The notes under the pieces were generated by a model, which made no database searches, was not told the origin of the DNA, and saw only the letters and a list, made by a program, of their open reading frames with translations. DNA of 64,000 nucleotides from Phoronis australis (lineage: Eukaryota > Animalia > Phoronida). Positions 5,050 to 40,288 of the stretch are shown here, one piece after another. Location: the NCBI GenBank assembly GCA_002633005.1, contig NMRA01000044.1, positions 778,074 to 842,073 of the forward strand, written 5' to 3'. Each line of letters opens with the position of its first letter. Position 1 is the first letter of the stretch. Made by a program: the position numbers and the translations under genes.

Positions 5050-5246
5050 TTAGACGGGGCATTTAACATTGCAAGGGAAGTCGCAGCGACACAACCTAGT
5101 GGTGAACTGCAAACCCGCTGGACAGGCTTGAGTGGAAGCATCTTGTCCGGCAACGGATTCTTGGAATGTGGAGCAGCCGCTATTTGGGACGTAGTGGTAT
5201 GGAATGCATTCTATCGTCCGATCACAATACAAAGGATCTACGACGG
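5050..5246 (-). CDS. Copy A exon 4: chitin-binding (CBM14/peritrophin-A-like) domain and stop
   Basis: Acceptor ttgcag; AVVDPLYCDRTIECIPYHYVPNSGCSTFQESVAGQDASTQACPAGLQFTTRLCRCDFPCNVKCPV*. Confidence 0.85.
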
Positions 5247-8200
5247 CTGCAACAAAGACAACGTTTTGAGATTGGTAATGATTCATTTGTGTGTTCCGTC
5301 ATTAAAAGGATTTACAAGAATTCCTTTATTTCTGTATGATTACAGGTAATCCCGGTAGCCAAAACAGACAATTTTACAGTCTAGAAATCGATTCAACATT
5401 TTACCATCATTTATGCATCAGGTTAACTTCTGGTAACGTGCAATGGTTCGTTGGTTATTGAAACAAATATCAATTATCAAATAAGATTCCATGACTTACC
5501 TTTGCACACAAGAGGAATGAGTGATTCAACTAAGCTGGTCAAGTTGCCCACCGAAAGCCCAAACACGTTAGATAGTGAGCCCCCTATAGCTGAAATCTCA
5601 TTCCATCCATATTTCCACATGCCAGCACCGATAGCAAACAGAGATATTCCTTTTTGGCGAGCGATGTCTGAATGATTTTTTGCCACCTCCAAGCTCGTCT
5701 GACCGTCAGTCACCACTATACCAATCTTCTTTGCATTTGGTCTGCCTCCTCTTGCGGCAGTGAAATATGTCTTGTACATTTCTTCAATAGCTATCCCACT
5801 CCGCGAGTCTGTGACACATGTCTTAACTGCAGGGACACTGGGAGACTTCAAAGCCTACAAGATTGCATCAAGTAAACAGCAATGACATCAAAGTATTAGA
5901 AACAATTCAGACAGAGTACAGGGGTCATCTGTGCAAACAACCTGTGCAATATTCGGTGTCAGATATTGGTCTTATTAAACAAAATCAAATTTTATAATAC
6001 TAATATCTGAATTTTTTTCAAAATTCACATTCATCTTCATAGCAGTGGCAAAGCAAATAACGCAGGTTGGAGGAACAAAATACTGCTATTACTGTGAACT
6101 ATTTTGACGAAAGCTTTGAGTGTCTTTTTGCCTGTTCACAAAATTGCAGCATGACAATAAGTCTGTCACGGGTACACCCCCTCAGTGCTCTCGTTACGAT
6201 TGGTCAAGTGAGTGCGGATACCCATTTTCATGCACTACGCTCGCTTGCATTCGTTAAAACACTACCCCCAGCACACCCCAATCTCACCCTTTATCTAGAT
6301 AATATAATACTACGTTGAATATCACTTTTTATACGGACAATAGATGTACGTTTTCTGCCTTTGTACAGTTACATTCTGTGGCAGTCTAAGTGACCAGAGC
6401 CGGCCAAGGTTTAAAAACAGGCTTGAGTGTTTCGGGAAATGACCATAGGGAGCAGAAACGGTTTTGTATCAAGTCGTAATGTCAACTCACACAATAGGGA
6501 ACTCACATTGAGTAACGTGACGTTGGTTTGGTAGTGGTTCAAATCAAAACATTTCCCGTTGTGCGGGAAGGAAATGACTCCAACTTGGAATGCCTTCGGT
6601 CCAATCTCGAACGCCGACACGGTGTCGTGTAACACCGACAGTACGTGACCATAGTTGCCGCCCATGCTGCCCGAGTTGTCGATAGCAATCATCACGTCCG
6701 CTTGGCCATTGCAGAGGGATTCCACTGAAGAATAAGAAAGTATGTTCTGCGTGGAACTAAAGTGATATAGACCCACTTCCGTCCAAGAAGTGAACTTTTG
6801 ACTTAGACCACTTGGCTTTGTAGAATTGGTTTTCAGTTTTGTCTTACTCGGACGGGAAGTATTGTCTGGGCTTGCAAAGAACTAGTAGCTCGCAATTCCT
6901 TGAGATAATGCTTTCTTAGAGCATAAAATGAAAGGCCGTGACATGTTGCCATGTAGGGCCTGGTCTCGAATAAAAACGAATTGTGAGTTTTTTGGAAGTC
7001 AAATCCACTTTTACTAGGAATCAATTTTAGACTAATTTTAATAAGTTAGGTGGACTAGATCAAAAATTATATTTAGTGATGGAAGGCGGATTTTCAGCTG
7101 CTTTAAACGCCTGCTAATCTGTTCAGTCTCTCTTTAGCTTACTTTTAGTTGTAACTTGCAAATGCTTTAATTAGTCGCGTTCAAAATCTTTCTAAAAATA
7201 AAACTGCTGCACTAAAACGTTAGAATTCCACCTATGTAAAAAGTAATTGATGTATTTTAGGCGAATTGTAAAACTGGAAAAAGGTGTAAAACTTCTTGCA
7301 AACATCTAGAACGGAAGCATACAACGAGTGAGTGGGAGCCGGTGCAGCTGTGTGATTAAAGATACCGTTTACCTTCTCGCCAGTTCAGAGTACAACATTA
7401 AAATTCTAATCCGAACGCCAAGGCCATCTGAAGCAAGCGACGCAGTACCGAATAAAGTTACAAGATTACAGATATCCTAAGTATGTTGAAATTCTCAGGT
7501 TTCATCTTTTATCGAATCGTGATCGTTTACAGCAGTAGGAAGCACAAAATGAGACTTTGGTGGAACTTAATTTTTGTACTTCAGCTTAGGCTCTTTCCGA
7601 AACCAGCAACGTATCAAAGAATTTCTACCAAAATAACAGCAAATGTGTTAAAGTCGTTTAATCAATTTGAAACAGAATCTCATTATGTATTTTCACTGTT
7701 TTCAGCTCTGGTTACAAAACTTTGCACAAAACCCCAAGTCACACGAATTCCTGAGTAAGTTTGCATGCAATAGCAGAGAAGGAAGTTATCTTATAGCCTT
7801 TCTATAAAATTCATAAGGCCAGAGTTCAAGTCACAGGAACAACTTATGAGGTGTTTTAGGTCATGCGATAGTGTTGAAGTTCTGACGTTCTAATCGTGTC
7901 TTGAGATCGTCTTATAGTTATAGTCATTATCAAAATGTTTTATTTCGTAAGTCGCTAGGGCAGCAGTACTTACACACATCACTCTCCAGTCATTGGGTCA
8001 TTGGTAGGGAGGAACTTACAACTTGCGGCCCATTTTGGAGAACATATACACATTTCTTTTATCCAAAACTATGTGTCCAAGTTTCGTATCACCTACACCA
8101 TGTTTGGAACAGGTTGACGCATTCAACATGACAGTAATACCAAGAAGACAACTGCACCTTCTACATCTGGAAGAAGATCAAGCGGTTGTAACCACTGTTT

Positions 8201-11200
8201 TGGTTACGCAGTCAGAAGGTGCTAGAAAGAAAAGGGCGACGCTGGTGGCTGCAACTGTTAATCCGAAGTGTCACCTCTCTTCGATGAGCTGGACCTCGAA
8301 CAACCCGAAGTTTTAGCATCTTCGGGGTGAACCATTGCCTGATAACCGGCTTGTCGTCTATCGGGCCAGAGCCCAACTTTTCCGTGTGTAGGCATGTAAT
8401 TAGCAAAATGTCATATTTATCATGAGATTCAAAAGGCGGGAATATGACAAGGGTTACATACCCATGCACCTTATCCACTCACCACAACATTAACCTTGAC
8501 ACCTGCTCCCAGTTTTGCCTGCACGATTAGCAAAAAGGCCTGGGTTCGAGCCCCGGTCGGTACAGAGGTCATTTCAGTGCACAAAAGGGAGGGAGCGTGG
8601 GAAAGGTATTAATCGGTTGACTTGAGATTTTGTGGTACCTAGGGTAGGGAGCGTGGGAGAGGTATGAAATTGTCTAATTAGGAAAGGTTACGAGTGAATG
8701 TACTGTGGCTTGAGGCTGGGCCAACAGGAAGCTGGAGAGAAAGAACAAACAGCGCTACCATCGGACTTGGCAGGAACTAATTAGGAGTTGGATATGAAGC
8801 ATGAAGGGCTGTATAATATTTTCCCAAATAATACGATTTATGTCAGAGTGCCATAAATCTCATTATTGGGGACAAATAAAACAACAAGAATAATATATAT
8901 TTTAAGTTGTATTGGGGGAGAGAGAGAGAGAGAGAGAGANNNNNNNNNNNNNNNNNNNNNNNNNNNNNNNNNNNNNNNNNNNNNNNNNNNNNNNNNNNNN
9001 NNNNNNNNNNNNNNNNNNNNNNNNNNNNNNNNNNNNNNNNNNNNNNNNNNNNNNNNNNNNNNNNNNNNNNNNNNNNNNNNNNNNNNNNNNNNNNNNNNNN
9101 NNNNNNNNNNNNNNNNNNNNNNNNNNNNNNNNNNNNNNNNNNNNNNNNNNNNNNNNNNNNNNNNNNNNNNNNNNNNNNNNNNNNNNNNNNNNNNNNNNNN
9201 NNNNGTATTTCGTTGTTGTTTATAAGTCGAGGAATCTGAAATCTAATACAGGCTCTTGATGACAATTTGTTGGACGGAGGAATTAAAATTTTGGGTTGTA
9301 TTGTCGGTATAGTAGCTGAGTATTGATTCAGGTATGTAGGAGTTTTAATGTGTCTGGTTGGCTTATATTGGATGGGTTTACTAAAGAAGTTGTTACTGTA
9401 AAAATACTTAGGAAGCTGAGTATTGAGGAATTTGTAGTAAAATTTTGCAGTTGAGATTTTAAAGATGTCTTGAACTAGAGGGAGGCGAAGTTCCTTACAT
9501 ATGGGCAGAGAGTGAGCATTATAACTGGAATTTGATATATTCCTAAGGATTCTTTTCTGGGCTGTCTGAAGTTTCTTAGTGTTGCCAAAACCCCAAGTTG
9601 AAATGCCATAGTTTAAATGTGGAAGGACAAGTGAATTATATATCAACTTGAGAGCTGGAAGAGGAAGATAAGATTTCAATTTGTATAAGAGTCCACCGAG
9701 ATTGTTAAGTTTGTTTGAGATGAGGTTAATGTGGGGGACCATGAGAGGTTTTTGTCAACAGTAATACCAAGGAAATGAAAATTGTTCACATGGCATAATG
9801 TTTTGCTATTTATATAAATGGTGGGAATAATACATTTTTCAATTTTCTTTTGGGGGTAGTGGACGATCATTAATTTACTTTTTGATGTGTCAATTGAAAG
9901 TTTTTTCACAGAAAACCAGTCTGAAATAGATTTAAGGTTGTTGTTGATGGTGGTTGATTGCTGTAAAGTGTGTTGGGAAGATTCAGTCAGTTTGTAAGGT
10001 GTGACGAGGCAAGTTTCGTCAGCATAAAGAAGTGTGTCCATGGTAGAAGAAAACGAAAGATCATTTATGTAAACTAGGAAGAGAAGTGGGCCAAGGACAG
10101 AGCCTTGGGGAACTCCGGTAGATATTGGTAACCAACTGGAAGTTGTATCACTTAGTGAAACATATTGAGTGCGGTTTAAGAGATAACTTTTAAACAGTGT
10201 ATATTCAACTCCAATACAATAGTGATTTATCTTTTGCAAGAGTATTTGGTGGTCTATTGTGTCGAAAGCTTTTGAGAGATCTATAAAGATGACCAGGGGA
10301 TTCATGTCATTATCAAGATGGGAACAAATGTGGTCTAAAAGTTCAAGCGAAGCAAGTTCTGTAGAGTGACATTTCCTAAAACCATATTGATGTTTATTAA
10401 GTATGTCATTTTCATTTAGGAAAGTTGAAAGTTGATTATGGATAATTTTTTCTATAATTTTTGAGATTGTTGGAAGAATAGAAATGGGTCTATAATTGCC
10501 CGGGTGCTGTGGGTCCAAACCATGTTGTTTAAAAACTGGGATCACCTTAGCAATCTTTAGAATATCTGGAAATATACCAGTGTGCAAGCACTGGTTGATG
10601 ATGGTCTTGAGAGGTTCAATTACAAAAGGACTCCTTATTTTGATAATTTTAGATGATAAATTGTCATGACCAGTGCTATTTTTTGCGTCCATGTCTCTTA
10701 TAATATATAGTACATGTTTATTATTAATTGGTTTGAAATAGAACTTAAATTTGTTTGGCGTGGGAATATAGTCTTTGAAATTCTTGTTTTTATCATAGTT
10801 ATTGATTTAGAAAGGGATGGGCCGATTTGGGTAAAGTAGGTGTTGAATAAACTTGCCATTTCGAGTAGGTCACTGGTTTTAGTGTTACATGAACGTACGA
10901 GACATTCTGGGGTGTCATTGTTTGTTCGAACGCCGTTGTTCATAACTGTCTTTATTGTATCCCATGTTTTATTTATGTCATAATAGTAAGATTGCTTGGC
11001 GGAATCAATAGTTTTTTTGAGAATCTTGTTGTATACTTTAAGATTGTTTTGGCATGTAGCGTAGGATTGTGTGTTGCGAGGGGTTGTCTTGGTTTGTTTG
11101 TACAGTTTATCTCGGTAACGAATGGAAATTAAAATACCAGGTGTAATCCACGAGTTAAGCGCGTGTTTATGTTTATTATATCTAACATTTTTGGACCAAA

Positions 11201-11785
11201 GTGTTTTTTCGTGAGATATGTCAAAGTATCACTGAGTATTGCGTAGTTGTGATCGGGGTCACAATCTAGGCTGCGGTCTAGCTTTTCCATGATATTACAG
11301 TTCCGTAAGCTATTGAGAAAGTGAGTTTTTGTTGTGGTTGAGTATCAGAAATTCGAGAAATAGAACTTTTAAAAAATTGATTGCAATTACATATTTTGAA
11401 AGAATTAATGTCGCAGAATGAACACTAAATGAAAAAAAAAAACGTTTCGTCCAATATGTTTTGTTTCGACATTTGTTTAATGGCATTTTAAAGTTATGTA
11501 GGACCTTAATAAACGGCCTCTACTCTAGGTCAAATATCTATCAATATATATCGTCAAGCATTAAAAGTATAATTATGTGTTAGTCTAAGTTACCTTCAAT
11601 AAACAGACCCCCAAATGACACATTTTTATGGTCAACGACATTGAAGCAACCAAGCTTAGTCATGGGTAAGTTCGCCTGATTAGCTACGCTAACATTCACT
11701 TAAAAACCCTCAATTTGAAAGATTTCAAAAACTCACCTTGGTTCACTAGAAGAAGTGTGACAAAAGATGTCGCTAGCATCCTCAT
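5050..11785 (-). CDS. Paralogue A: secreted VWA + chitin-binding type-2 (CBM14) protein, 272 aa; complement(join 11737-11785, 6507-6724, 5500-5854, 5050-5246)
   Basis: Manually spliced. All introns are GT-AG with phases 1/0/1, giving an 819-nt open CDS. Signal peptide MRMLATSFVTLLLVNQVES; VWA motifs ADVMIAIDNSGS (DxSxS), GGRPNAKKIGIVVTDG and GISLFAIG; C-terminal C..C..CPAGLQF..CRCD..VKC. The structure is identical in two other copies. Confidence 0.9.
5500..5854 (-). CDS. Copy A exon 3: C-terminal half of VWA domain
   Basis: Acceptor ttgtag, donor gtaagt; RPNAKKIGIVVTDG motif. Confidence 0.9.
6507..6724 (-). CDS. Copy A exon 2: N-terminal half of VWA domain (MIDAS DxSxS)
   Basis: Acceptor cttcag, donor gtgagt; DNSGS motif. 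Confidence 0.9.
8918..8939. repeat. (GA)n microsatellite abutting an assembly gap
   Basis: Seen directly. Confidence 0.9.
8940..9204. other. Assembly gap (N run)
   Basis: N characters. Confidence 1.
9205..11340 (-). mobile_element. 5'-truncated, frameshifted non-LTR retrotransposon (CR1/L2-group) ORF2 reverse transcriptase in intron 1 of copy A
   Basis: Motifs NYRPISIL, QYGFR, FIDLSKAFDTIDH, GVPQGSVLGPLLFLVYINDL, YADE (for YADD), FLGI..D..LSW and LIYNSLVLPHLNYGISTWG across frameshifted ORFs 10698-10943, 9676-10692 and 9205-9742. Confidence 0.9.
11737..11785 (-). CDS. Copy A exon 1: signal peptide
   Basis: ATG at 11785, hydrophobic core, donor gtgagt; conserved in copies B and C. Confidence 0.8.
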
Positions 11786-11990
11786 TTTAACCACAAGTCC
11801 TGAAAGACGGAAAAAGATTAACAAAGCTATGGATATTGACCAATTATTGAAACCTAAGGAAGATCTTTGTGCTTTGATTTGAAACTAAAGGATACCCTAC
11901 CTGTATCTCGTATAGTTTGGTTTCGATATGCGCTTGTACCAATCTGCAATATTCTTACACGCAATCCTGAAAATGTTATTATGTTGCAAA

Positions 11991-11998
11991 TATTTATA
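11991..11998 (-). promoter_or_regulatory. TATA box of copy A (TATAAATA)
   Basis: About 90 nt upstream of a conserved donor (CAG|gtagg at 11901/11900) ending a putative 5' non-coding exon; the position is conserved in B and C. Confidence 0.6.
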
Positions 11999-12711
11999 GT
12001 ACGTCGACATGGCGATTTGCCAAGTGTTCATGTTGATAACTAAAGGCATACGCGAGTATTTCACGAATTTTTTTTTCATCTTATTTGACAGATTATTCAC
12101 AACTTCTTTTACATGGGACTGTTTCCAGGTGACGTGATCTCAACTTGAGTACTACAATTTTAGTATTAAAATCAAACTAAAAACTGGAGCGAAGAAAAAG
12201 ATAAGATAACACACTTTAAACATCACCGAGTTGCAAAAAGAACAGAGTAATATAGACCTTTGCAGAAGGTAGCAGACCTTCGAAGCACAAACTGTCGTTC
12301 TTTGTTACGGCAGTTTTTGATTGTGGGTTTGCTCATACTCTCGTAACCTCAAATTGCAACAATTTATGCAGAAATTGAAAGTGACGTACAATGGAAAATG
12401 GACATTAACACTGAGATATTGGGAATAAACAGTTGCCGTGTTATCGCCGTTCTGTCAACATTGACATCAGGGACTGCTTTACTCATACAGCTTAAAGTCG
12501 TTGTTTTTGATGTAGTTGCAGCGGGTTGTAAATTTTCAAGTGTAAGTACTGCAAAAAACACTCAATGTGTCCACAAAATTGCGACAGTTCGTACTTCTAA
12601 GGTCTGAACAAATTATCTCATTTTGACGGTAACTGGAGTTCGTTCAAATCTATAGACCACAAATTGTGACAATAAAACATTATGGCAGTTTGTCGATCAG
12701 AAGGTTTTTAA

Positions 12712-15504: not shown

Positions 15505-17459
15505 TTAAAATTGTTGCAATTTTAGCATGATGACGACTCTTGGTCATACAGCTTCCTTAACACCTTTAGATGATGGAACCAATTCTTTCATGACAAGTCA
15601 TTTCACAATCGTTAAGGTGTCGCGAGTGGGGGAAATGCCCCTTTAAGTTACATCGACTGTAGACAAGAAATGGAGACAGGTGACAGACAATAGTGAAGAC
15701 AGAACGGAAGCACTTGCGTCACATTCAAAATTTGCAATTAAAAAACATTTTAGTGGAATCGGTTTGGAAGGCAATTTCTGTTCGTAGCAATACAGTGCAC
15801 ACGGTCCTAACCTTTTAGGATTCTACGCTGTATTTGACTAGGAGACACTTTTCCTTGCAAACTGTTGACATGTATATCGTTTAAGTTTATGAGCCTCGGC
15901 GAGTTGATTCTCGTGGAACTCTAGGCAGTCTATTATGTCGCCTATAGGGGGCAGGCTAGCCTAGTCCACAGATAAGCAATTGAAAAAATAGATGTAGACT
16001 TAACGAACGTGGAGGTGTTTCTAACAGTCTGGATTTTCGACCAAAGGACAGTATAACAATTGATGATAACCAAGAAATATTGTTGACCACTGGAACAAGG
16101 TGAAAACTCCACTAAGGGAAAATTTCGTACCTTCTCCTTTCGCCTCATTGTCAGTGAAAGTGTGTCCGAGTCGAACTATTTTCCGTAAATAGTTGATGGT
16201 TGTGGTACTTTTTCTCTAAATCGCGTGAGGAATCGTTGTAATTATATTTACTTAAACATTTAATGTTTCATATACCACCTGCCTTTTGGAACAATAAACT
16301 CAGTTTTACCATGACGCTCAATAAAAACAGACACATGAATTATTGAGATAATAAAACAATTATTCAACTAGACCTCTTGGAACAAACGTTTTCTTAGTTG
16401 AAATTAAAATATTCTGTGTAATTCTTTATTTCAGCTTACGAACAGCTCATACAGGCGTAGACAATCGATGTTAGTCACGAATTTACGGTGAGGCACGAAT
16501 ATACGCAAAATTTGAAGAAAGAATATGTATGTTATTTGGCTTCCATGCCAACTGGCGGCATAGTAACTGTCCGCAGTACATTTGCATGCGTAGCAGCGAA
16601 TGGCTGATATCGTTATGTTTCATTATTAAACACCACCGATTAGCACCGTCAACTGCTATCTGTAATTTGGTTCCGAGCTGAATCCATCTTTCATACCGCA
16701 GTTGCGACGGTTTTCGCTAATGCGACGAAATCTCTGATAGTATACGTAAGTGGAATTTTGGCCAATCTTCGTTTTCCTTTGCATAAAGTCGTTTTTCCAC
16801 TCCTGGAGTTTGTTAAATTTACACGAACACTAATTGAGGATGTTCTTGTAAACGTGAGAAGTGTGGGCGTACTCGTGCACCCGTGTCGTGCACCCGTGAC
16901 CAGAATCTGTCGATAAGAATTACTTAAAAGATATTTGGGGTAAGTTCTTCATCTACGACTGTTAGCTGGAAGTCTTGTGTTTAGCCAGTGTTTGCATTGT
17001 GTTTCTGGTAGGGTTGGAAAATAAGACATTTGTTGAAGAAATTTCAACGTGTGATTAAAAGTAGGTGTATTCCCCCAGTGAGCGCGAGCTCGAATTCTCT
17101 TAACATGATGAACTGATTAAACCAATGTTGAGGAATGCAATGTCAGTCTCGGTCAGCCGATTTATAACTGGTGTATGCGACAAATCTATGTAGATTAATA
17201 AGACACAAATTGAAGCTGACATAGCACGATACACGATGTTGCAACACAAAACGCATACAAGGGTCTAGTTCATAACAATGTCTACACAAATATTAAAAGT
17301 AGTACTAGCAACTTCTTCATAATAACATTTGTATGAAAATGAAGAAATCATGTCATGCGTATTCAATGTTTTACAGTGTAATTTAATTTAGAAAAAGGTA
17401 TACGGATATGAAATGATGGCTCAAAAACCGTACGGCCGTTTGACTATCCTTCGCCCTCC

Positions 17460-17460
<1 letters not shown>

Positions 17461-17504
<44 letters not shown>

Positions 17505-19477: not shown

Positions 19478-19674
19478 TCAGACGGGGCATTTAACATTGG
19501 CAGGGTAGTCGCACCAACACAACCTAGTGGTGAACAGCAAACCCGCGGGACAGACTTGAGTGAAAGCATCTTGTCCGGCAACGGATTGTTGGAATGTGGA
19601 ACAGCCGCTATTTGGCACGTAGTGGTTTGGAATGCCCTCTATCGTCCGATCACAATACAAAGGATCGACAACGG
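19478..19674 (-). CDS. Copy B exon 4: CBM14-like domain
   Basis: Acceptor tttcag, TGA stop; homologous to copy A exon 4. Confidence 0.85.
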
Positions 19675-22600
19675 CTGAAACGAGGACAACGTTTCGAGAA
19701 TGGTAATGATTCAGTGTGTGTTCAGTCAAAAAAAGACTTACAAGCATTCCTTTACTTTTTCATGATTATAAGTACCCCCAGTACCCAAAACAGACAACTT
19801 TACAGTCCAGATATCGATTCAATATTTTATCTAGGCAACAGGTTAACTTCTGGTAACTTGCAATGGTTCGCTGGTCTCCAATATTCACTTTCGGGGATAT
19901 TGACCAATTCATAGACGGTTTTTGAAAATATAACTTGCTAATACTGTAACTACGAAATTCACGCTCCAGAGTGAAACTCGAAAAAAAATACATCTAATAT
20001 CATCCGACTGGCAAACACACTGTTGAAGGCCCTTGACTCACATCCCTAAACTCCACACACGCAACGAAAATGCAACATACCAATCCCGCAGACAAGATTC
20101 CATGGCTGCACCACAAGTCACCAGTCGGAATTTATGGGCACGACCATGGAATCTGGTCCCCAGTATTGGAGTTTGGTCATCACATGTGGAGGACTTTGGG
20201 TACCTGTGTGGAGCTCAGACGTGCGGTTCTTGACAATTGCAACGTGGGTTTGTTCTTTGCTGGTTCGGCACTGAAATTTAGAAGCTCTGTCATGGTCATT
20301 GAAGAACGTGTACTATTAGAGCATGAGTGTACTGAATTTCTTTGTTGTTTTTTTTTTCTTGAAATATAATAGACAAATTATAATCTAATAATTAATTAGA
20401 TTAAAGCTTGATGAAGAATACATTTTTCAAATCAATTGAAACAAATATCTATTTTCTAATAAGATTCCATGACTTACCTGTGCACACAAGAGGAATGAGT
20501 GATTCAACTAAGCCGGTCAAGTTGCCCACTGAAAGCTCGAAAACGTTAGACAGTGAGCCACCGATAGCTGAAAGCTCGTCCAAGTTTAAACCCCAGCTGC
20601 CGGTACCGATAGCGAACAAAGATATTCCTTTTTGGCGAGCGATGTCTGAACGATTTTTTGCCACGTGCAAATCCGTGAAACCGTCAGTCACCACAATACC
20701 AATTTTCTTTGCATTTGGTCTACCTCCTCTTACGGCAGTGAAATATGTGTTGTACATTTTCTCAATAGCTATTCCACTCCTCCAGTCTGTCACACATCTC
20801 TTAGATGCAGGAACACTGGGAGACTTCAAAGCCTACAAGATTGGATCAAGTAAACAGCATTGGCATCGAAGTACCCAGAGACAACTCAAACTGAACACAG
20901 GGGTCACCCATGCAAACAGCCTCTGCAATATTCGGTGTCAGATATAGGTCTCATTGAACAAAATCAAATTTTATAGTACCAATATCTGGAATTTTTCTTG
21001 AAATTCACAATTCATCTTCATAGCAGCTACAAAGGAGATAAGATAGGTTGGACGAAGAATATTGCTATTACTGTGCACTATTTTGGCGAAAGCTTTAATT
21101 GTCTTTTTGACAGTTCAAAAATTGCAGCATGACAAGAAGTCTGTGACTGGTACACTTCTCATTGCTCTCGTTACCCATTTCCTTGCACTACGTTCGCTTG
21201 CATTCATTAAAATACGATCCCAGCACACCCCAATCTCACCTTTTATGTAGATAATATAATACTACGTTGAATGTCAGTTTTTATACGTGCCTTTGTACAG
21301 TTTCATTTCGTGGCAGTCTAAGTGATCAGAGAGGTGAATTTTTCGGGAAATGACCATGGGGAGCAGAAACGATTTCGTATCAAGTTGTGACGTCAACCCA
21401 GACAATAGGGAACTTACATTTAGCAAGCCAGCACTGGTTGTGTATTGGTCCAAATCAAAACACTTTCCGGTGTGGGGAAAGGAAATGACCCCAACTTGGA
21501 ACGCGTTTGGTCCAATCTCGAACGCCGACACGGTGTCGTGTAACACCGACAGTACGTGGCCATAGTTGCCGCCCATGCTGCCCGAGTTGTCGATAGCAAT
21601 CATCACGTCCGCTTGACCATTGCAGAGGGATTCGACTGAAGAATAGGAAAGATTAACGTGCGTGGACCTAAAGCTATGAAAAATAAGACGCATAATTTCC
21701 ATAAAAATGATATTTTAATTCAGTGAAATTTTTTTCTCGTGTTCTCTCACATATAAATCACCGATATCCAATTTTAAAGCGGGTATCGTGTCGTCGGGAT
21801 CCTTTGACTTGAGCTTTGTAGTCAGTTGCTAGTGGTAAACTACTTTAGCAGACGATATTTTGCCGGTCCAAGCTCAGCCTGTTAAAATGTGTAGAAAGCT
21901 ATTATAGTTGCTAAACCTTAATTTATAGATTCAATTTATTTCTATTTTGTTTAAATTTTCAATTGGTTTTGAGTATAAGCAATATTTGACAAAAATACCT
22001 CGGCTTTTCTTAAAAGGTCACGACCTCCGACCCCGGGCCTCTGACATAGAAAGTAGTTACAAAGCCGAGGCGAGTCGAGACATGATTTCTGTAAACTATG
22101 TCTAGAGTGTGGCAGTGGCGGATCTACGGGGGGGTTCAGGGGGTTTAAACCCCCCCCCCTCGGGCCAGGACCCAAAAATTAGAAAAAAACAAAAACGTCT
22201 CCAGCAAAACAAAAACGGCACCGCCAGCGTGTGTAAACTCCAAGTAAACCAACTTGGAAAAAGACGAGGGGGGGGTTCACTCTAAAAATATTTTTTTGCA
22301 TTGTGAATTGCTGTTATGAAAATCAACGCGTTTCGAGTCTTTGTGACTCGTCGGCAAAACCCCGGAGATCAAATGTGCGCGCGCTTCCGACGACACTTCT
22401 GAAGTAGCCAAGCATTTTAGATGGATCCACGGCTGAAATAGCAGCTCTATAGCTGATTTCTTTAGGTAACTAGTTTCTTTACTCTAAGATATGTTTTGAT
22501 TTGATTAGGGGAAATACTGTGGTGCCACAATCCTGATATTCAAGCGAATTGACGTGCAACCTTTTTTACCTCATCTGTCATGCCATGTTACACCCCACAC

Positions 22601-24585
22601 GTTTGTAACTCGAATTTGACTGGTGCATAGTAAAGTTGTCTTGCGCGATATCATACAGTGTACATGTACATGTAATACTTGAAAAAAAACTCGTTTTCCG
22701 AAGAATTGCTATTGTGGCCTGCGCCGTGGTCTGGTCGCGAGTCTGTTTGAAGATGCTCTCTAACAAGTTATGTCTATACAAGGAATGACCAAGGGAACAC
22801 TCACATTGACAACGTGACAGCTTTCGCGAACAGTGTACAGTACCAGAAATTGCGAGGAGGCTGTATCTTCACAACAAAGTCTTGCGGTAGTTGTGCGATG
22901 TTCAACGGGCCTCCTAAAGAGCCCTAGTGCCGACCTCAACACCTACCGTCTTACTACCTGCAATAAGCACCACCGCCGTTTTCTATACTGGGAATTTCCG
23001 CATTAGGCCCACCCGAAGAAACGCCCGGCATGCCCATCGGCATTTATTTGATGTTAGTACTTCAGGTTTCAAGCGTTCAGACATTGGGACGTTTATTTCG
23101 AAAATTGCAAGAGATGCAAATGGGTCCTGGGATACATCGTCAAGGTTTGAAGTAGTCCATGATGAACGGATCGAATTTAGTTGCTCACGCTGTAAGTCTT
23201 TTGAATGGACTTGATTATCTCAGGGGGCTTAGTGCCAACTGAGCTTCGAAACGAAATTCTGACAATGTAGAGGCGTACAAGCTCATTGACACAGCAGTTG
23301 TCGAAGTGCAAGCGTTGGTAACAAACGTCGAAGATGTTTAGGTAGAATGATTTCAAGAGCAGCAAACCATTGGATCCGATGTACAGATTCCCCGGCAGTC
23401 TAGACAACAGAAAGATAGGACCAACGTTCCCGGAGAAACACCCAGGTAATAAGTTATAATTATACACAGTTTGTAATAATGTCTGTTTTTTATGATTGTG
23501 TACAATGAAAACGAAATAGAAATTATTTTTGGACATGCCAAATTTACCCAGTACAGCAGAGGGTCTACGAGGGCACAGAAACTGATTCTGGTTTGTATTT
23601 CCACTTGAGTCTATCTGCTTCATATCCAAAATCTTATTTCACGTAGTGCGTAGTTAAATCTGTACTCCATACTTGTTTCTTCCAGTGAGTACTACAGAAC
23701 GGTGCGAAAACCCTTCCTAGACAACCTCTCGCAGCAGTTGACCACCAGATGTATGAACTACACGTATGAGCATCCACTGGGGATTAAAAAGTGTNNNNNN
23801 NNNNNNNNNNNNNNNNNNNNNNNNNNNNNNNNNNNNNNNNNNNNNNNNNNNNNNNNNNNNNNNNNNNNNNNNNNNNNNNNNNNNNNNNNNNNNNNNNNNN
23901 NNNNNNNNNNNNNNNNNNNNNNNNNNNNNNNNNNNNNNNNNNNNNNNNNNNNNNNNNNNNNNNNNNNNNNNNNNNNNNNNNNNNNNNNNNNNNNNNNNNN
24001 NNNNNNNNNNNNNNNNNNNNNNNNNNNNNNNNNNNNNNNNNNNNNNNNNNNNNTGAGCCAAGTTCATGTGACGAAATCGAGAATGGTTTTTAATTATCTT
24101 AAGAAAAACTCCAGGGACATGTTAAGTGCCAGAAACGTACCAGGATGCATGGAAATTTCACTGTTTGGCTATAAAAACAAAAAGTTGTCTTACACGGGAG
24201 GGGGTTTACCCGGCCTTACCCCCCTCCCCGCTCGGCGTCACGCGCCTCGGATTCGACCTTTGCGGGAATCCTAAACCCCCCTTACTGAAAACGTAGATCC
24301 GCCACTGTGTGGTAGCTTTATAATTGCTTTTTAGTTTTTTTAACAATTGCTAAATGGGAGGGTGAGACCTAATTTCTGTCTTAGTTTAAGTTACCTTTAA
24401 TAACCAGAACCCCAAGTGACACGTTTTTATGGCCAATGACTTTGCAGTGACCAAGCTTAGTCGTGGGCAAGTTCGCTTGATTAGCTGCGCTAACATTCAT
24501 TTCAAAAATCTCAATTCGAAAGATCTTAAAACTCACCTTGTTTCACTAGAAGAAGTGTAACAAGAGATGTCGCTAGCATCTTCAT
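19478..24585 (-). CDS. Paralogue B: secreted VWA + CBM14 protein, 272 aa; complement(join 24537-24585, 21418-21635, 20478-20832, 19478-19674)
   Basis: Exon sizes 49/218/355/197 nt as in copy A, with GT-AG sites and no internal stops. Starts MKMLATSLVTLLLVKQVES and ends CWCDYPANVKCPV*. Confidence 0.9.
20478..20832 (-). CDS. Copy B exon 3: VWA C-terminal half
   Basis: 355 nt, flanked by ttgtag and gtaagt. Confidence 0.9.
21418..21635 (-). CDS. Copy B exon 2: VWA N-terminal half
   Basis: 218 nt, flanked by cttcag and gtaagt. Confidence 0.9.
22113..24307. mobile_element. hAT5-like non-autonomous DNA transposon (TIR CAGTGGCGGATCTACG, 5-bp TSD TGTGG) in intron 1 of copy B
   Basis: 16-bp perfect TIRs; TGTGG at 22108-22112 and 24308-24312; contains a gap and possibly nested decayed LTR-retrotransposon sequence. 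Confidence 0.8.
23795..24053. other. Assembly gap (N run)
   Basis: N characters. Confidence 1.
24537..24585 (-). CDS. Copy B exon 1: signal peptide
   Basis: MKMLATSLVTLLLVKQ followed by donor gtgagt. Confidence 0.8.
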
Positions 24586-28494: not shown

Positions 28495-28960
28495 AGGAGA
28501 AACTAAGCATGTTAATTATCCAGTAGAAGTCATTCTTCCTGTCGTAGAATTCTGATTTAATCATCTTATTACGTAACTTTCACGTGTTATTATTAAATTT
28601 ATGGTGCACTGTGTGTTGAATTGTCTTCGTGGTGGTCTCTGATTTCACCAGTTTCATATAGCATGTTCATAGAGCAAAGATAACGGGGTCAAAATGACAT
28701 CTTAACGGTAAATCTACATAATTTCAATCAACACAATTGCCCAGAAGTCAGCAAGGCTCCGCAATGTATGCTTACCATCATAATATTCTGAAAGCTTGGT
28801 GGTGACCTTTGATTTTGTGAGGTGTTCCTTTCACAAATTGTTATCATTGCGTAATCAAGGATCATGAGAAACTAAGCAAGTTAATTATCCAGTAGAAGTC
28901 ATTCTTCCTGTCGTAGAATTCTGATTTAGTCATCTTATTACGTAACTTTCACGTGTTGAT
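28495..28960 (+). repeat. Local direct duplication of about 95 bp (28495-28590 and 28865-28960)
   Basis: GAGAAACTAAGCA..TTATCCAGTAGAAGTCATTCTTCCTGTCGTAGAATTCTG..CACGTGTT occurs twice. Confidence 0.8.
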
Positions 28961-29957: not shown

Positions 29958-29963
29958 TTTATT
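29958..29963 (-). terminator. Polyadenylation signal AATAAA, copy C
   Basis: Paralogous position. Confidence 0.6.
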
Positions 29964-30088
29964 CATCATTAATGTAGTACACATTCGTACATTCATTTAA
30001 ATTGCACGTGTATGTCTTGCTTGTCACCTTTTACAATTCTTGTCTCAAATTCGATAGAATTTCACTGAGAATAATTCTACGACCCCAT

Positions 30089-30285
30089 TCAGACGGGGCA
30101 TTTAACATCTGCAGGATACTCGCATCGACACGACCTGGTGGTGAACAGCAAACCCGCGGGACAGACTTGAGTGAAAGCAGGTTGTCCGGCAATGGATTGT
30201 TGGAATGTGGCGCAGCCGCTATTTGGGACGTAGTGGTTTGGTATGCCCTCTATTATCCGATCACAATACATAGGATCGACGACGG
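30089..30285 (-). CDS. Copy C exon 4: CBM14-like domain
   Basis: Acceptor tttcag, TGA stop. Confidence 0.85.
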
Positions 30286-33200: not shown

Positions 33201-36200
33201 ACAAACAAATTGTGTCTCTTGAAAGCTTCAGAGTATTCAGATTCCAGTTAAGAGAGTTAAACTGGTTAAAAATAAACACCGAGAAACCAAAACTGTGCTT
33301 ATACAGATCTGTTAAGAATGACTATTGTGTGGAAGAGTATTTACGTCTGTCGGTGTCTCAGAGGTCCGTCATAGCTCGATTGAGAGCAGGTAAAAACGAA
33401 ATTGAAGATGAAGTTCATTTCATCTTTGATTGTGAAAAGTATTCTCATATTCGACCATTTATATGGGGTTCTGCCCTACCTCAAGTATTCCAAAATAACT
33501 TGAAAGGTATAGCAAAATTCCTTCAAGAAGCTTTGCAGCTGAGAAATAATTATTTGTTTGTAAATTAGTCTGAAGTTGTCAGATTTGAGTGTGTGCATTA
33601 TGTTATGTTAAGATTTAATTTTTATTAGGTGGCTGAGGAGGCCATTGTGGCTGGGGAGTGTGGTGAATATTCAGTACCTGAAATCATGTATTTACTGGCA
33701 CACTTATGTCACTATAATAAATGAATAATAATAATAATACAAACATTTGATTCATCTTGTAAATTATGTTGAAATTTTTGAGACCAGCTCGTAATTGATT
33801 ATTTTATTTCTGAATTTATTTGTTTTTTCGAAATATAATAACCATATTTACAGCTAAATAAGATACTGTTTACGCTTCATTTAAAAACATTATAATATGG
33901 ATTTTATCGCACTGGTTAGTTCATAAGCCCAAATAATACCCATTCAATACAAATTCAAATATTTCAAACTGACGAAACTTAACCTGAGTTCTAAATAGGT
34001 GGATGTAAAGTAGTGGTATCTTCAATCTGACATAAAACGCAAAAAACAGATTAAAATGCATTATTCAAAGTGGTTCTTAGAAGGTAAACTATTCACCGGG
34101 AATTTTTACGGTTTGTTGTGAAGATTTTGAATTCTGTTGATGCCAAAGCATTTTCCTTTAGATTCAAATTTCAAATAACGATCTGTCATTTCGTAGATTT
34201 TTCTCTCACATGGCAAACCAAGTCTACTTATTTGCTATGGCAAGGTCTTTGACTTTCCTTGTCAAAGCGATGGCGATTATGGCCTTGGAAAATGTTGATT
34301 GGGTACTTTTTTTAGTACATGCACGCATGTATATAGTTAGGGGCGATAATTTGAAAACTATTGTGATGAAAAAGTTCATTTTTCGTCTTTGTTTAAATAA
34401 TAGTGAATCAGACAATTTTCCTAGAAATTCTTGCAATATTCAAAGTGAATAACTCTCACTTAAGCCTCCCCCAAGAGGCAGGTCTGTTTAAAAGGTGTTT
34501 TCACGAGATTTAGCGTTCCATGGGTCTTTAAGATTCTGATCCGATTAGTTGATTTTAACTTGATGAAAGAATACATTTTCAAAGCCCTGTATTCAAATGA
34601 ATATCCATCATCTGGTAAGATTTCATAACATACCTTTGCACACAAGAGGAGTGAGTGTGTCAACTAAGCTGGTCAAATTTCCCACGGAAAGCCAGAACAC
34701 GTTAGACGGTGAGCCCCCGATAGCTGAAATCTCATTCCACCCGCTCTGCCACGTGCCAGCACCGATAGCAAATAGCGATATTCCTCTTTGGCGAGCGATG
34801 TCTGAACGATTTTTTGCCACGTACTCGTTTGTCCGACCGTCAGTCACCACAATACCAATCTTCTTTGCATTTGGTCTACCTCCTCTTGCGGCGGTGAAAT
34901 ATATTGTGTACATTTCTTCAATAGCTATTCCACTACGATAGTCTGTGACACAGCTCTTAACTGCTGGGAAATTAGGAGACTTCAAAGCCTACAAGATTGA
35001 ATCAACAGTTTCGACATCGACGTGCCAAGAGACAATTTGAACACAGACGTCTTTGCGTGCAAATACATGGGCGACGCAGCAATGAAATAAGTGGGGATAT
35101 AGCCCACCCCTCGGATCCCTATGGTACGCCCCCCATGAAATAATCTCTAAAATATTCATTGTCAGGCATTAGTTTTATGAAACAAAATTGATGCTTATAA
35201 ATATCTGAAAGAAGTATTTTTTCCTTCAAATGTGTCATCCCTAGTTGATTTTTAAAGCAGCAGTAAGGTGCAGTAGACTGCAGACTCAGCCTGGATGGAC
35301 AAAATGCTGCCATTACTTTGCACTATTTGGGCGAAAGATAGATTAAACTTCCTATTGGCATTTTCACAAAATGATTACATGTGTCCAATATGAGTAAGTT
35401 TATAATAATAACGGTTACTTTTCTGCTCTCGTTGTTATGATTGGTCAAGAGAGTAGCTGCCTTTGAGCATTTCTCTTGCACTACTTTCGCTTGCGTTCAT
35501 TATAAAATGATACCAACACACCCCATTCTCACCATTTGTGTAGATAATGCAACGCTGAATGTCAAAGTTAGAAGAAAATTGAAATAATAAATGTACTGCG
35601 GTTCAAACACGACTGTTTATAGACGGGCAATGTTGTCGGCCTCTGTAATTTTACATTCCGTGGCAGTCTGGTGAAACTGGGGGCCAAGTTCGAAAAAGCA
35701 TGAGACACTGTTTCGAAAAATGACTATGGGGAGCAGAAACGATTTCGTTTCAAGTTTTGTTACCAAGTCAGATAATAGGAAACTCACATTGAGTAACGTG
35801 ACGTTGCTTTGGTACTGGTCCAAATCAAAACACTTCCCGTTGTGTGGGAAGGAAATGACTCCTACTTGAAACTTGTTGGGTCCAATCTCAAACCCCGACA
35901 CGGTATCGTGTAACACCGACAGTACGTGGCCATAGTTGCCGCCCATGCTGCCCGAGTTGTCGATAGCAATCATCACGTCCGCTTGGCCATTGCAGAGGGA
36001 TTCGACTGAAACACGAAAACTGTTTAGCGTCAAGTATTTGCCGTAAAAATCATTGAGAACTTGAACCTTTTAAGGTTCAAGTTCTCAATGATTGCAGAGT
36101 TGTTGCAGAGATTTTAAAAAATCTCTGCAACAATAAATACGTTTTTCGTCCAAAGGCGAGGCTTTGATTTAGACCACTTTGCACTATGAAATTGTTTGTT

Positions 36201-39200
36201 ACACAGACGGGAAGTAATTTCTAGGCTTGCAAAGAACTGGCAGTTCGTAATCTCTTGACACTAAGCTCGGCACCGCACCCGTTGACATGCTAAGTTGTAG
36301 GGTCTGGTCTGGAGCAAAAACAAACTGTGAGCTCTTTCGAAGCTTTTGAATCGAATCCAGTTTGACTAAGGGACAGTTCAAGAGTGATGTCACAAAACTG
36401 TGTGATCTAGATCAAACATTATTTTTGTGATGGAAGGCGGGTTTCCAGCCGCTTTAAACGCTTGCTAATCTGTTCAGTATTTCTTAGCTTACGTTAACTC
36501 GTTAAAACTTGCGAATGACTTGAGTTGTCGCGTTCAAAATATTTCTAGAAATAAATTAAAAACCTAACTTCTGCATTAAAATGCTAAAATTCCATCTATG
36601 TAAAAAGTATTTGAGGTATTTTAGGCGGGCTCTAAATGTGATGGAAAAAGAGCCACAAAACTTATGGGAAACATCTAAACAAAAACATTCAGCGAGTTCT
36701 CACGCGGTAATGAGAGCCGGTGCAGCTGTGTGATTAAAATTTAGAGCCTAACATTGAGTTACTAATCTGAACACCGAGGCCATTTCATGTAGCTAACATC
36801 TGAAGTAAGTGGAGCAGTCGTTGACCTTAATAAATAAGGTTACAAATTTAGCCTACAGATATCCTAGACATGTTTGTTGAATTTTTTTTTATCTTTTATG
36901 GAATAGTTAATCGGATACAGAGTTGGCCTTTAAGCTGAAGGCACACAATACGATTTTGGTGTAACTTATGTCTTACACCTCACCTTAGCTGTTTTAAAAA
37001 TGTGTAGAAAAATCAAATTTTTGCGATGACTTCATGATTTTACGAGCAGCATCTCAAAGAATTTCTATTGTGTTTAGTAATGTGTTAAAGACGTTTTTAA
37101 ACATTTTAAGAACTTTAAAAAGTGCTTAAAATCACCAATTTTTATCAAAAACCCACCAGTTGATCAGCTGTCAAATTAGAACACCCGCAAATACTTACGT
37201 GACGTGATGTTGATAAGTTGACTAGAATGATTGGTGGATGTATACGTGAAACCAACCACAGCACCAGTCCTCCACCACTGTGTTGAGAGTCGGCAGATTT
37301 TGCTTCTCGTCTCCCGTAATTTTGGTATAATAATTAATGACGAGGTGTTGCTTTTGTGGTAACTGCGACAACTTAGTAGTTGGCGACGCTGTGACTCTTT
37401 TCACTTTCCGGCGGGACGTCGGAGAAGCGCGGATGCAACACACGTTGTGTACAAGAGACTCGCGTGCCGGTGGACATGCATGACGCACTGGCGCTGGGTT
37501 CGTTCACACTCACGCCCGTGGAGCAAAGAAATTTCAGTCGAAGTGACGATCTTTTTATTTTCTCATTTTTTGGGATATTGAGTTCACGATTGTAATATGG
37601 AGTGTTATAATGGTTAAATGATGACGACAATGTAGTCAATTGTCAAAACAAAATAAAGGGTGGTTCTAAGCACTTTAATTTAAAGCAGAAGCGTATTTAC
37701 GTTGTCTTAAGCTACTGTCACAAAACTTCGTACGAATTCCTTAGTAAATTTGCATACCAGAGTAGAGGGGGAAAACTGTCTTACAGCTTTTTTACGAAGT
37801 TCACAAGGTTACCGTTCAATTCACAAAACTAACTTAAGAGGTATCCTAGGTCATGCGATTGCGATGGAGTTCTTACGGTCTAAGCGTGTCTTGGGATCAT
37901 TTTACAACATAGAATGTTATATTTCGTAAGTCGTCAGTGCAGCTCTGCTTTGTGCTACTCTCAGCACTCTCGAGTCGTTGTGTCATTGGTAGGAAGACTT
38001 TACAACATCCGTGGAGTCACTGAGTCATTGGTAGGAAGGAAGACGAGACAAATTCCGGCGCATCTTGTCGAAAATATAAATGTTTCTTTTATCCAAAATT
38101 ATGAGTCCAAGGATCGCATCACCTATACCATATTTGGAAAAGGTTCACACAATCAACATATGGAGGAAGATCAAGCGGTTGTAACCACTGTTTACGGTTA
38201 GGTTGTGGCAGGAGGTGCTAGAAAGAAAACGGAGACTCTGTTGGCTGCAACTATTAATCCGAAATATCACCTCTATGAGCAGTTCGAGACTCTGTTCGAT
38301 AAGCTAGACCTCGAGCAACTCGAAGTTTTAGTATCTTCGGGGTAAACCGCTACCCAAAAACCCGCTTGTCATCTTAGTGGGCCAGAGTCCAACTTTCCCG
38401 TGCGTAGGCATGTAATTGGGAAAATATCATATTTAACATAAGAGCCAAGCGGCGGGAGCATCTGAGAAAATTAACACCCTTTGGCCACGTGAAGGTTTGG
38501 CTTCTAGAAGTCGAGACCTTCTGTGAGGAAGCAGTAGATCCACTTCCAACTTGTCCTGCAAATTATGTTTCTCCAACAGTTTTGTTTTCTTGATGATCGA
38601 TTTCCGAACTCGCGGGAAAACAGGAACATAAAAATGAAATCGTGAATGAGAAAGATAAACCGAAAATGCACCCAGTTAGGGAATTAGACGATGGGTTTTC
38701 GAAACTCTGCCACCTCCTCCCTAGTACTGCCAGCACTGTTAGCAAAAAGACCCGGGTTCTAGTCCGGTTGGCTCAGAGATCTTTTCAGAATTAGCTATAG
38801 GCCATGTGGTGTGACCAACATATGTTGTATTGGCACTGGTATTGTGTAAATACCTGGCCTTGTCCCGTCCACCGCGAATTAGTCGGGAGCTTTTCTCCCT
38901 GGTCTACGAGGTCTGCTTCTCTTGGCGTGAAGAGGGGACCCTCGCAAAGGACTGTGACGTGTAAAAGTGGTTCATTGGTCTTTGTTGTATGTTCCCAATT
39001 AGGAGCTTTGATATCTCGGCTCTGCTTCCCACCCATGGCCTTCTTGTGTAGCGCCTTGTGGAACTTTCTCCCAATGATGAAGACCTTGTTAATGGACTTG
39101 CCGTTGGCTACTACCAAGTCGCCTGCCTTCTTATTGTCTTGCAGCACTCGGGACAGGACGCTCACCGTCTGTTATGCGAGATGGAAGTATTGGTTTGGCC

Positions 39201-40288
39201 AGTGAGCATCACAGACTGTTCCACCAAGCGAAGGAGTCCCTTTGCGTCAACTTCCTCTCCCTTGCGCTGGGCTATCACTGGTTCCTGTCAAAGGGTGCCG
39301 AGCGGACCCTTGGTATTCGGCATACCCTGTTGCACATATCATAACTGCTGTCTGCAACGGCCACTGGCTTGTGAGCTGGTGGTGGCACTAAATCTAGCAC
39401 ATCCCCATCGAGGGGATTCACTGTTAGCTCTAGTTGTGTCCGACAGGGTGTGTGATAGAGTACGAATTCTTTTAAAGCTGTACTGGGCAAATGCTCGATA
39501 AAGTGCTTGGCTACGAATGCCCCCTGTTTTATCCACAGTGACCACTGCACCGATTTGACTGTAACCAGAGGGTCAAATCTAGCCACTTTAGTGGGTGGGT
39601 AATATGAGTCACCCTCCGAGTCGGAAAACTCGTGACTAGAGGCTATGCTACCACTGTCACCCTGATCACAGGCCCCGCGGGCTTGGGCTTCTCGACGGGA
39701 ATCACCGTCAACAGACTCAATGTCGGAGTCTGACCCCAGTCTTACAATGTCACCTGGGTCTAAGCGCTGACTATGCACTAACATTGACGGGGAGTCATTG
39801 AAAGCGGATACACCACGATATGCGGATATACCTCCTGTGCAAATAGACCGCCGTCTGCAGACCGCCAAGCGCGGTTAAGCCGTTGTCAGCATATTTACTA
39901 GCTGCCATAATGACAGTAAATTTACCCTCACAAAGGTGAATTTAGAATAGGATTTTTGCCATTTTCATTCGGGACTTATGTTTGTAAAATAGTTGAATTG
40001 AAGAACGATGCGTGCGCAATTTCTGTCTTTGAATGACTAGTGCGCAATCATTCTGGCGCAGAATGCAATTATTATAACAACTTCCGTTTTTATGAAATGA
40101 AATTACCTTCATAGAGACCAAGTGACATGTTTCTTGATGGTCAACGACTTTGCAATCCCAAGCCTAGTCGTGGATAAGTTCGATTGATTAGCTACGCTAA
40201 GATTTATTTACAAAAAAAATGTGAACGGTCTTAAAAACTCACCTTGGTTCACTAGAAGAAGTGTAACAATAGATGTCGCCAGCATCAT
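30089..40288 (-). CDS. Paralogue C: secreted VWA + CBM14 protein, 271 aa; complement(join 40243-40288, 35788-36005, 34634-34988, 30089-30285)
   Basis: Exon sizes 46/218/355/197 nt, GT-AG sites, open frame. Starts MMLATSIVTLLLVNQVES and ends CRCEYPADVKCPV*. Confidence 0.9.
33180..33740 (+). mobile_element. 3' fragment of a LINE with a (TAA)n tail, antisense in intron 3 of copy C
   Basis: KPKLCLYRSVK..EEYL..QRSVIARLRAG / IEDEVHFIFDC..Y..IR is a typical ORF2 C-terminus with an internal deletion; ends in ATAATAAATGAATAATAATAATAA. Confidence 0.7.
34634..34988 (-). CDS. Copy C exon 3: VWA C-terminal half
   Basis: 355 nt, flanked by ttgtag and gtatgt. Confidence 0.9.
35788..36005 (-). CDS. Copy C exon 2: VWA N-terminal half
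   Basis: 218 nt, flanked by tttcag and gtgagt. Confidence 0.9.
38850..39870 (-). mobile_element. Decayed DIRS/tyrosine-recombinase retrotransposon gag-like relic in intron 1 of copy C
   Basis: GC-rich broken ORFs with NPLDGDVLDL..HK....D, KGPLGTL*QE and GQTNTSISHNRR motifs resembling DIRS ORF1; absent from copy A. Confidence 0.45.
40243..40288 (-). CDS. Copy C exon 1: signal peptide
   Basis: MMLATSIVTLLLVNQ followed by donor gtgagt. Confidence 0.8.

Follow-up and report, generated by a model that had tools for sequence, protein, structure and literature searches.

Proteins that combine the von Willebrand factor A (VWA) domain with a CBM14 chitin-binding (CB) domain are already known. According to PMC6231486, mollusc genomes have 2–19 of these VWA-CB genes, Lingula has 6, Phoronis, Notospermus and Branchiostoma have 2 apiece, and Ciona has 1; single-VWA forms are placed there in non-molluscan spiralians and Octopus, outside the bivalves and gastropods, and half of the pearl oyster genes are reported to lack expression in shell tissue, the ancestral role being left open. 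Among the Pif/BMSP members of this class a laminin-G remnant lies behind the chitin-binding domain in 34 of 50 cases, and the Pif97 VWA domain is reported to pull down other shell proteins (PMC11291548). Two other kinds of secreted protein have a similar layout. The VCBPs, encoded by clustered paralogues for which gene conversion has been invoked, carry a variable N-terminal head and a C-terminal CBM14 domain; they show gut expression and bacterial binding, their alleles are described as hyperpolymorphic (PMC2632668), and VCBP-C tethers bacilli to chitin beads (PMC6109156). The adjacent C. elegans genes clec-60/61 encode VWA plus lectin proteins that are reported to be gut-induced and protective (PMC2895663). 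Here we describe three tandem genes, A, B and C, in a 64,000-nucleotide stretch (the window) of Phoronis australis contig NMRA01000044.1, whose predicted secreted products join one VWA head, different between copies in a few loops, to a CBM14 tail, and which are probably a set of chitin-tethered binders with different specificities. No description of a hypervariable single-VWA plus CBM14 family was met in the literature that was searched, most subscription journals lying outside that search.

The three genes are intact and lie on the minus strand between 5050 (the A stop codon) and 40288 (the C start codon, ATG). Their coding parts are split into four exons, with lengths of 49 (46 in C), 218, 355 and 197 bases, every intron is GT-AG, and the coding sequences, for proteins of 272, 272 and 271 amino acids in A, B and C, align without gaps, which bears out the proposal of an earlier sequence-only reading that these are three intact paralogues. 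In every copy a predicted signal peptide in exon 1, judged by eye from the hydrophobicity of the leader, is followed by one VWA domain (exons 2 and 3) and one CBM14 domain (exon 4), and the coding sequence ends directly after the latter, without an acidic, low-complexity or laminin-G part. A Pfam scan for VWA (PF00092) covered four exon 2 or exon 3 pieces and matched all four, exon 3 of A, B and C with 40–49 bits and exon 2 of A with 34 bits (cut-off 23.8); no additional VWA or CBM14 exon was found within the 64-kb window. The genes belong to the VWA-CB architecture class, having a VWA and a chitin-binding domain in one predicted secreted protein and spliced joints in RNA. Introns and flanks are part of the duplicated unit and are 13–28% divergent between copies, so A, B and C are paralogues and not alleles of one gene.

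A wrong assembly of alleles, the outcome that would have undone the sequence-only reading, or a set of silent pseudogenes is accordingly largely refuted, and we give such explanations almost no weight. N-gaps interrupt the first intron in both A and B, and gene A was not itself a reference for read alignment, but mis-assembly was rejected on the divergence of the non-coding DNA; the intron sizes are also unequal, the same RNA runs contain both B splice joints and C reads, and a loop of the A type is present in 24 reads of run X3.

A, B and C have the opening 37 residues of exon 2, GGRPNAKKIGIVVTDG and GISLFAIG in identical form, while four segments vary (A/B/C): TD[S/W/Y]RSG, DG[QTSLE/FTDLH/RTNEY], AIG[AGMWKYGWN/TGSWGLNLD/AGTWQSGWN] and VF[G/E/W]LS. 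Between A and B, 21 of the 118 residues of exon 3 are different, as against 0 of the 43 with which exon 2 begins; these counts and the motifs, first given in the sequence-only reading, were all reproduced. Its "nearly invariant" scaffold was overstated, as 61 of 271 columns vary among the three copies and only 13 of these fall within the 16 loop codons that it named; the other variable regions are residues 79–86 (6 of 8 columns) and the CBM14 domain (17 of 65 columns). A blind sliding-window test of clustering was not significant (p 0.07–0.38, six tests). On the other hand, when metal-face and bottom loops were assigned by alignment to integrin alphaX (residues 90–97 were moved out of a bottom loop after the variable columns had been seen), columns with three states made up 9 of 58 in the metal-face loops, 0 of 40 in the bottom loops and 1 of 130 elsewhere in the VWA domain (p=1e-4 for 9/58 vs 1/130); for radical changes the metal-face count was 12 of 58, versus 7 of 130 elsewhere (p=0.002). 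The AlphaFold models were too poor for use (pLDDT, the predicted local confidence, 42.5 for exon 3 and 47.5 for CBM14), and loop placement is therefore by alignment. It agrees with the earlier assignment of the four segments to the alpha3-alpha4, betaD-alpha5, betaE-alpha6 and betaF-alpha7 loops, with loop identities as given in PMC9440770. The fifth variable tract, residues 79–86, sits off the metal face. At this 3' end of exon 2 (21418–21450, minus strand) the window has a B-specific version and the RNA a third version (91 and 58 reads, one joint), and the tract creates or removes an N-glycan sequon at residue 84.

RNA was available as one contig set (X1) and three stranded raw-read runs (X2, X3 and X4) under the same species label. 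About 18–19% of each raw run was read, and the reads were aligned to B and to exon 3 of C. On B, depth is restricted to the exons and the reads have a single orientation, which fits the minus strand; the splice joints of B itself are crossed by 21 and 37 reads. On exon 3 of C, reads that are 99+% alike make up 1082 of 2009 in X2 and 942 of 1651 in X3 (about 240 reads per kb per million), and 9 of 112 in X4, with only 43 and 30 reads of X2 and X3 being 95–99% alike. The family is thus expressed, spliced, strand-specific and abundant, with high levels in two of the three raw-read runs, and so came through the expression check that the sequence-only reading had set for itself. It is a real, highly expressed and lineage-restricted family.

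Loop versions that are new relative to the window are found in the RNA at the same places: RTGLS, QTGLA and RTNEL at 141–145, L, F and PHY around 106, and GRWEYG at 167–172. This inventory is partial, drawing on 40 out of 314 variant rows and 40 out of 116, its loops were translated by hand from read consensuses, and two read-end consensuses with low agreement (0.79 and 0.84) are not counted as types. Type E, which forms 30–48% of X2 and X3 reads at marker sites, has QTGLA at 141–145 and Ser168 and retains QSGWN; one X1 contig phases about 10 silent differences from C in its codons 160–193, and the keeping of QSGWN despite these suggests that the loop type is maintained. Type D accounts for about half of the X4 reads and has CATSFSS at 102–108 with RTGLS at 141–145; a 20-base leader motif of this type was not found in the window. 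Further types have PHYES at 104–108 (18 reads) or an A-like GRWEYG (12 reads). In X1 and X4 there is a C-like type in which two bases have changed for each of Y106L and Y145L; it also has R157K, N95D and I118T, and over codons 132–207 it differs from C in only 4 bases, two of them giving Y145L. Y106L is present in 19 of 28 X4 reads and in 0 of 700 and 0 of 493 reads of X2 and X3, respectively.

The C of the window and the C-like type are mutually exclusive across the four runs, as alleles would be; from RNA alone this could also be read as paralogy, and although loop-focused variants were observed in all four runs, alleles and paralogues are not separable by such data. The mutual exclusion would also suit loop types that serve as identity tags on a chitinous coat, for the recognition of self and non-self or of gametes, and in a sponge, clustered polymorphic VWA-containing genes have been proposed as allorecognition factors (PMC5400394). 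Two of the runs share an almost identical C, however, and the copies have no membrane anchor, and we regard this explanation as quite improbable.

The relatives of the VWA domain were sought with HMMER, which gave 913 proteins at E<=0.001; the best 150 of these were examined and all are multi-VWA proteins, but ranking by whole-protein score hides single-VWA relatives, and distant single-VWA plus CBM14 homologues may exist outside the best 150. Word-index homologue searches found no homologue, a metagenome scan matched 178 stretches of which none was confirmed, and Rfam gave no match. The closest matches among the best 150 of 913 are collagen/matrilin-type VWA domains with 33–37% identity, and the best-scoring named relatives, all distant, are mostly from a brachiopod, molluscs, amphioxus and a nemertean, plus one fish. 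The window copies have the DxSxS and TDG motifs and terminal cysteines in common with VWA domains of collagen VI/XII and matrilin type (Lingula XP_013410815.1; mussel PTMP1, PDB 4CN8; the integrin alphaX I domain). Unlike the window copies, the collagen/matrilin-type relatives are multi-VWA proteins, with CBM14 in 0 of 23 scanned.

For comparison of single domains, 160 were used out of the 549 full-length related VWA domains in the same 150 proteins. Against these, D32, S34, S36 and D139 are canonical; A, B and C all have D32-N-S34-G-S36, and D139, which aligns with alphaX D240, stands in a column that is Asp in 156 of 160. Residue 106, which is S, W or Y in A, B and C and L or F in RNA, falls in the column of the Thr of the metal-ion-dependent adhesion site (MIDAS), which is Thr in 157 of 160. 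An ungapped extension of the alphaX alignment concurs (106 = T207, 139 = D240); one of three profile alignments, that of B, puts T104 in this column, while those of A and C favour 106, and one RNA type has no Thr anywhere at 104–106. Residue 106 is therefore likely, though not certain, to be the MIDAS Thr position. Next to it, residues 99–103 form a five-residue insertion with Cys102 that occurs in 0 of 160 related domains, and the F76–G109 spacing is 33 versus 27–30 in all other compared domains. In integrins this Thr is described as coordinating the metal in the ligand-bound state (PMC9440770). With W, Y, L or F in its place, canonical MIDAS binding would be disabled and a variable aromatic group would occupy the middle of the face. 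Because a variable residue appears to occupy the Thr column beside an insertion that none of the 160 domains has, the metal site has probably been remodelled. The working MIDAS assumed by the sequence-only reading is thus doubtful, and the Mg2+/EDTA assay that it proposed may behave otherwise than expected.

The VWA domains of three molluscan multi-VWA plus CBM14-like proteins, used as proxies for Pif references, score only 22–38 bits versus 70–92 for the best collagen-type domains, and their tree distance from the window domains is 3.3–3.9 versus 2.1–2.3. In this comparison the window VWA is nearer to the collagen/matrilin type, which suggests that the fusion with CBM14 was a separate one. 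Membership in Pif/BMSP was set aside as unlikely; the distance of the VWA domain from these proxies argues against it, and the laminin-G remnant is missing, a stop codon following CBM14 instead. The copies share with the VWA-CB proteins, including Pif97/BMSP, the order of signal peptide, VWA and then CBM14 (PMC6231486, PMC11291548), and differ from those described there in their minimal 272-amino-acid form, the variable MIDAS Thr column, the collagen/matrilin-type VWA and the recent tandem copies with loop-focused divergence.

A collagen/matrilin-type VWA would suit proteins that cross-link a chitinous structure such as a shell, tube, bristle, radula or egg case, in which the tail sits on chitin, each VWA face binds a different self matrix protein, and the copies are divided among tissues or stages. 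The pull-down by Pif97 cited above and the stage-specific use of VWA-CB genes (PMC6231486) are in line with this, as are the high expression, typical of structural proteins, and the strong differences between the three raw-read runs in the levels of the types (in reads per million, 0.08, 0.97 and 2.53 for the D marker and 16, 18 and 1.5 for the E marker). Self partners poorly explain the recurrent two-base changes at 106 and 145 between nearly identical sequences, however, and the low scores of the molluscan VWA domains and the lack of a laminin-G remnant or acidic region also tell against cross-linking. We think it unlikely, and it ranks behind microbial recognition.

CBM14 domains typically show a six-cysteine pattern. 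The window copies depart from it; B and C score 24.3 and 25.6 bits against PF01607, above the cut-off of 22.1, and A 16.3, below it. A Cys-Asp/Glu-aromatic motif is retained, as in the matched solved chitin-binding modules, and the tail likely binds chitin. In gene A this domain (5050–5246, minus strand) has C221 and C266, absent from B and C, which may form a new disulfide or mark decay.

The reading that we place first, tentatively and at somewhat less than even confidence, is that the family grips different foreign targets, for example microbes, through copy-specific VWA loops while the CBM14 tail anchors it to chitin. The predicted secreted protein would be held on a chitin layer by its tail, and its single VWA head, with four loops that differ between copies around a probably remodelled metal site, would bind differing foreign targets; the top face may have turned into a pocket that is rich in aromatic residues and largely independent of metal, perhaps with a C75–C102 disulfide as a staple. 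Gene conversion would keep the scaffold uniform, with divergent loops retained and reshuffled, so that few genes and alleles yield a small repertoire. This reading is supported by the concentration in metal-face loops of the three-state and radical changes and of the top sites of a site model (our own implementation, three sequences). This model, blind to the loops, places 8.7% of sites in a class with omega 5.5 (M1a/M2a p=0.0009, likelihood-ratio test (LRT) statistic 14.1; M8a/M8 p=0.0002), and its seven sites with a posterior of at least 0.95 (171, 170, 141, 145, 106, 168 and 172) are all in the named loops. The reading is also supported by the new RNA versions at the same loops, including the two-base Y106L and Y145L, by the end of the protein directly after CBM14, and by the precedents of VCBP-C (PMC6109156), clec-60/61 (PMC2895663) and the VWA-CB genes reported as non-shell (PMC6231486).

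The working principle would be like that of the VCBPs, a variable head with a chitin tether, reached independently on the VWA fold. The likeness extends to secretion, clustered paralogues and gene conversion; the VCBP head consists of two Ig V-type domains whereas that of the window family is a single VWA, on which ground VCBP membership was rejected, and the allelic diversity, gut expression and bacterial binding of the VCBPs stand beside a family known here from genes and RNA. For the sequence-only reading, the architecture, loop placement and expression are supported, and the RNA adds loop versions outside its material; a working MIDAS is doubtful, and positive selection has no robust support. 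The fuller proposal, an independent VWA counterpart of the VCBPs whose metal site became a paratope-like aromatic pocket, with loops shuffled by conversion and polymorphic between individuals, that tethers microbes to chitin, is possible and somewhat less likely than the binding of foreign targets as such. The clec-60/61/62 proteins resemble the window copies in being secreted VWA proteins with a carbohydrate-binding module, which is a C-type lectin and not CBM14; the role of clec-60/61 rests on gut induction and protection (PMC2895663), and the window family is likened to them by architecture. If the copies bind different foreign targets, the design of variable head and chitin tether arose twice, the second time on a different fold, and even with an incomplete MIDAS a VWA top face can be diversified for recognition. 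The role of many non-shell VWA-CB proteins is given as an open question in PMC6231486, to which such VWA-based tethering, if true, would offer a testable answer. The proteins are small and predicted to be secreted, with about 16 differing codons, which makes loop-swap binding tests easy.

A number of observations weigh against recognition of foreign targets. The LRT statistic of 14.1 falls to 2.5 when multi-base changes are allowed and to 0.0 with a fast rate class. In 40 simulations of true point-mutation selection the stricter tests stayed significant in 28 and 19, and among the 23 of 40 replicates with a plain LRT of at least 12 the minima under those tests were 5.4 and 1.6; simulated selection thus seldom drops so far, and the collapse is informative. 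The four loops pooled have omega 1.3, not different from 1 (p=0.27), and the top loops are also enriched in silent differences at invariant residues (15 of 38 vs 20 of 106, p=0.015). The DxSxS loop, on the same metal face, is invariant (0 of 10 columns variable), and so only part of that face varies. In the tail the third CBM14 cysteine is replaced by Ser238, and an extra Cys260 is present. A nearly unchanged C is common to X2 and X3, unlike the amphioxus VCBPs, for which PMC2632668 reports a new allele in every animal. No NF-kB-like site was found in the 900 bases upstream of each copy, which is a weak point. VWA plus chitin-binding proteins are, moreover, best known from skeletal matrices.

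Simple positive selection by point mutation was accordingly rejected as a proven cause, and the ratio of non-synonymous to synonymous change (dN/dS) that was to support the sequence-only reading gave no robust signal; overall dN/dS among A, B and C is 0.35–0.39. What is present is a pattern of blocks of old or imported sequence within a more homogeneous scaffold. The B-specific tract at codons 80–88 (p=0.004 for the A-C agreement run, with three pairs tested) suggests gene conversion, and the silent rise in the loops suggests that old loops were kept or swapped by it. Such blocks are expected if selection shields divergent loops from conversion, and patchy conversion with relaxed constraint could fit too. 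The latter is the basis of a rival explanation in which the top face became unconstrained after loss of the MIDAS Thr, old divergence was left behind by patchy conversion, and duplication served dosage in proteins with one job, so that nothing more than a common kind of tandem expansion, its metal site degenerate, would be present. The loss of the selection signal, the silent divergence of the loops, the comparable tract off the metal face and the equal frequency of merely variable columns in bottom (11 of 40) and metal-face loops (18 of 58) all agree with it. It accounts less well for the absence of indels and stops in three copies, the strict conservation of the DxSxS loop and D139, the 9 three-state changes in top loops versus 0 in bottom loops, the recurrence of aromatics at 106 and the QSGWN loop retained across silent divergence. 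Neutral loops are in our judgement unlikely, and take third place after matrix cross-linking.

Table 1. Positions in the window of the coding exons, variable codons and predicted upstream elements of genes A, B and C
Feature	Positions	Strand	Basis
Gene A, coding extent	11785-5050	-	
A exon 1 (predicted signal peptide)	11737-11785	-	hydrophobicity
A exon 2: N-terminal VWA half, DNSGS motif	6507-6724	-	Pfam VWA match
A exon 3: C-terminal VWA half	5500-5854	-	Pfam VWA match
A exon 3 variable codons	106: 5804-5806; 141-145: 5687-5701; 166-174: 5600-5626; 188: 5558-5560	-	
A exon 4: CBM14-like, extra Cys 221 and 266, stop codon	5050-5246	-	score under Pfam cut-off
Gene B, coding extent	24585-19478	-	
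B exon 1	24537-24585	-	gene model
B exon 2; 3' end (codons ~80-88) is the divergent tract specific to B	21418-21635	-	splice to exon 3: 25 + 12 reads
B exon 3	20478-20832	-	Pfam VWA match; splice to exon 4: 13 + 7 + 1 reads
B exon 3 variable codons	106: 20782-20784; 141-145: 20665-20679; 166-174: 20578-20604; 188: 20536-20538	-	
B exon 4: CBM14	19478-19674	-	Pfam match
Gene C, coding extent	40288-30089	-	
C exon 1	40243-40288	-	read-end consensus (637 + 651 reads) matches exon 1 joined to exon 2
C exon 2	35788-36005	-	gene model
C exon 3; dominant transcript in runs X2 and X3	34634-34988	-	Pfam VWA match, RNA reads
C exon 3 variable codons	106: 34938-34940; 141-145: 34821-34835; 166-174: 34734-34760; 188: 34692-34694	-	
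C exon 4: CBM14	30089-30285	-	Pfam match
A: predicted TATA-like box and 5' untranslated region (UTR) intron (donor 11900, acceptor 11800)	11800-12000	-	conserved in three copies; prediction only
B: matching predicted promoter/5' UTR elements	24785/24698/24600	-	
C: matching predicted promoter/5' UTR elements	40505/40405/40306	-	

Pfam searches of 125 other frames of the window found only a THAP-domain fragment (55437–55712, minus strand), under the cut-off and probably a remnant of a DNA transposon. Intron 1 of A contains a remnant of a retrotransposon of the long interspersed nuclear element type (RVT_1, 117 bits; 9679–11228, minus strand) that adjoins an N-gap at 8940–9204. A GC-rich stretch in intron 1 of C (38790–39874) has overlapping long frames without a Pfam match and is possibly a mobile-element remnant, and a degenerate trinucleotide-type repeat at 56588–56989 has Asp/Gly-rich and Thr/Ile-rich open frames, also without a Pfam match. 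Upstream non-coding sequences of 1.8 kb (15505–17270 and 41090–42877) are 87% alike between A and C, with no match upstream of B. This may reflect a regulatory block common to the two or an element that was inserted.

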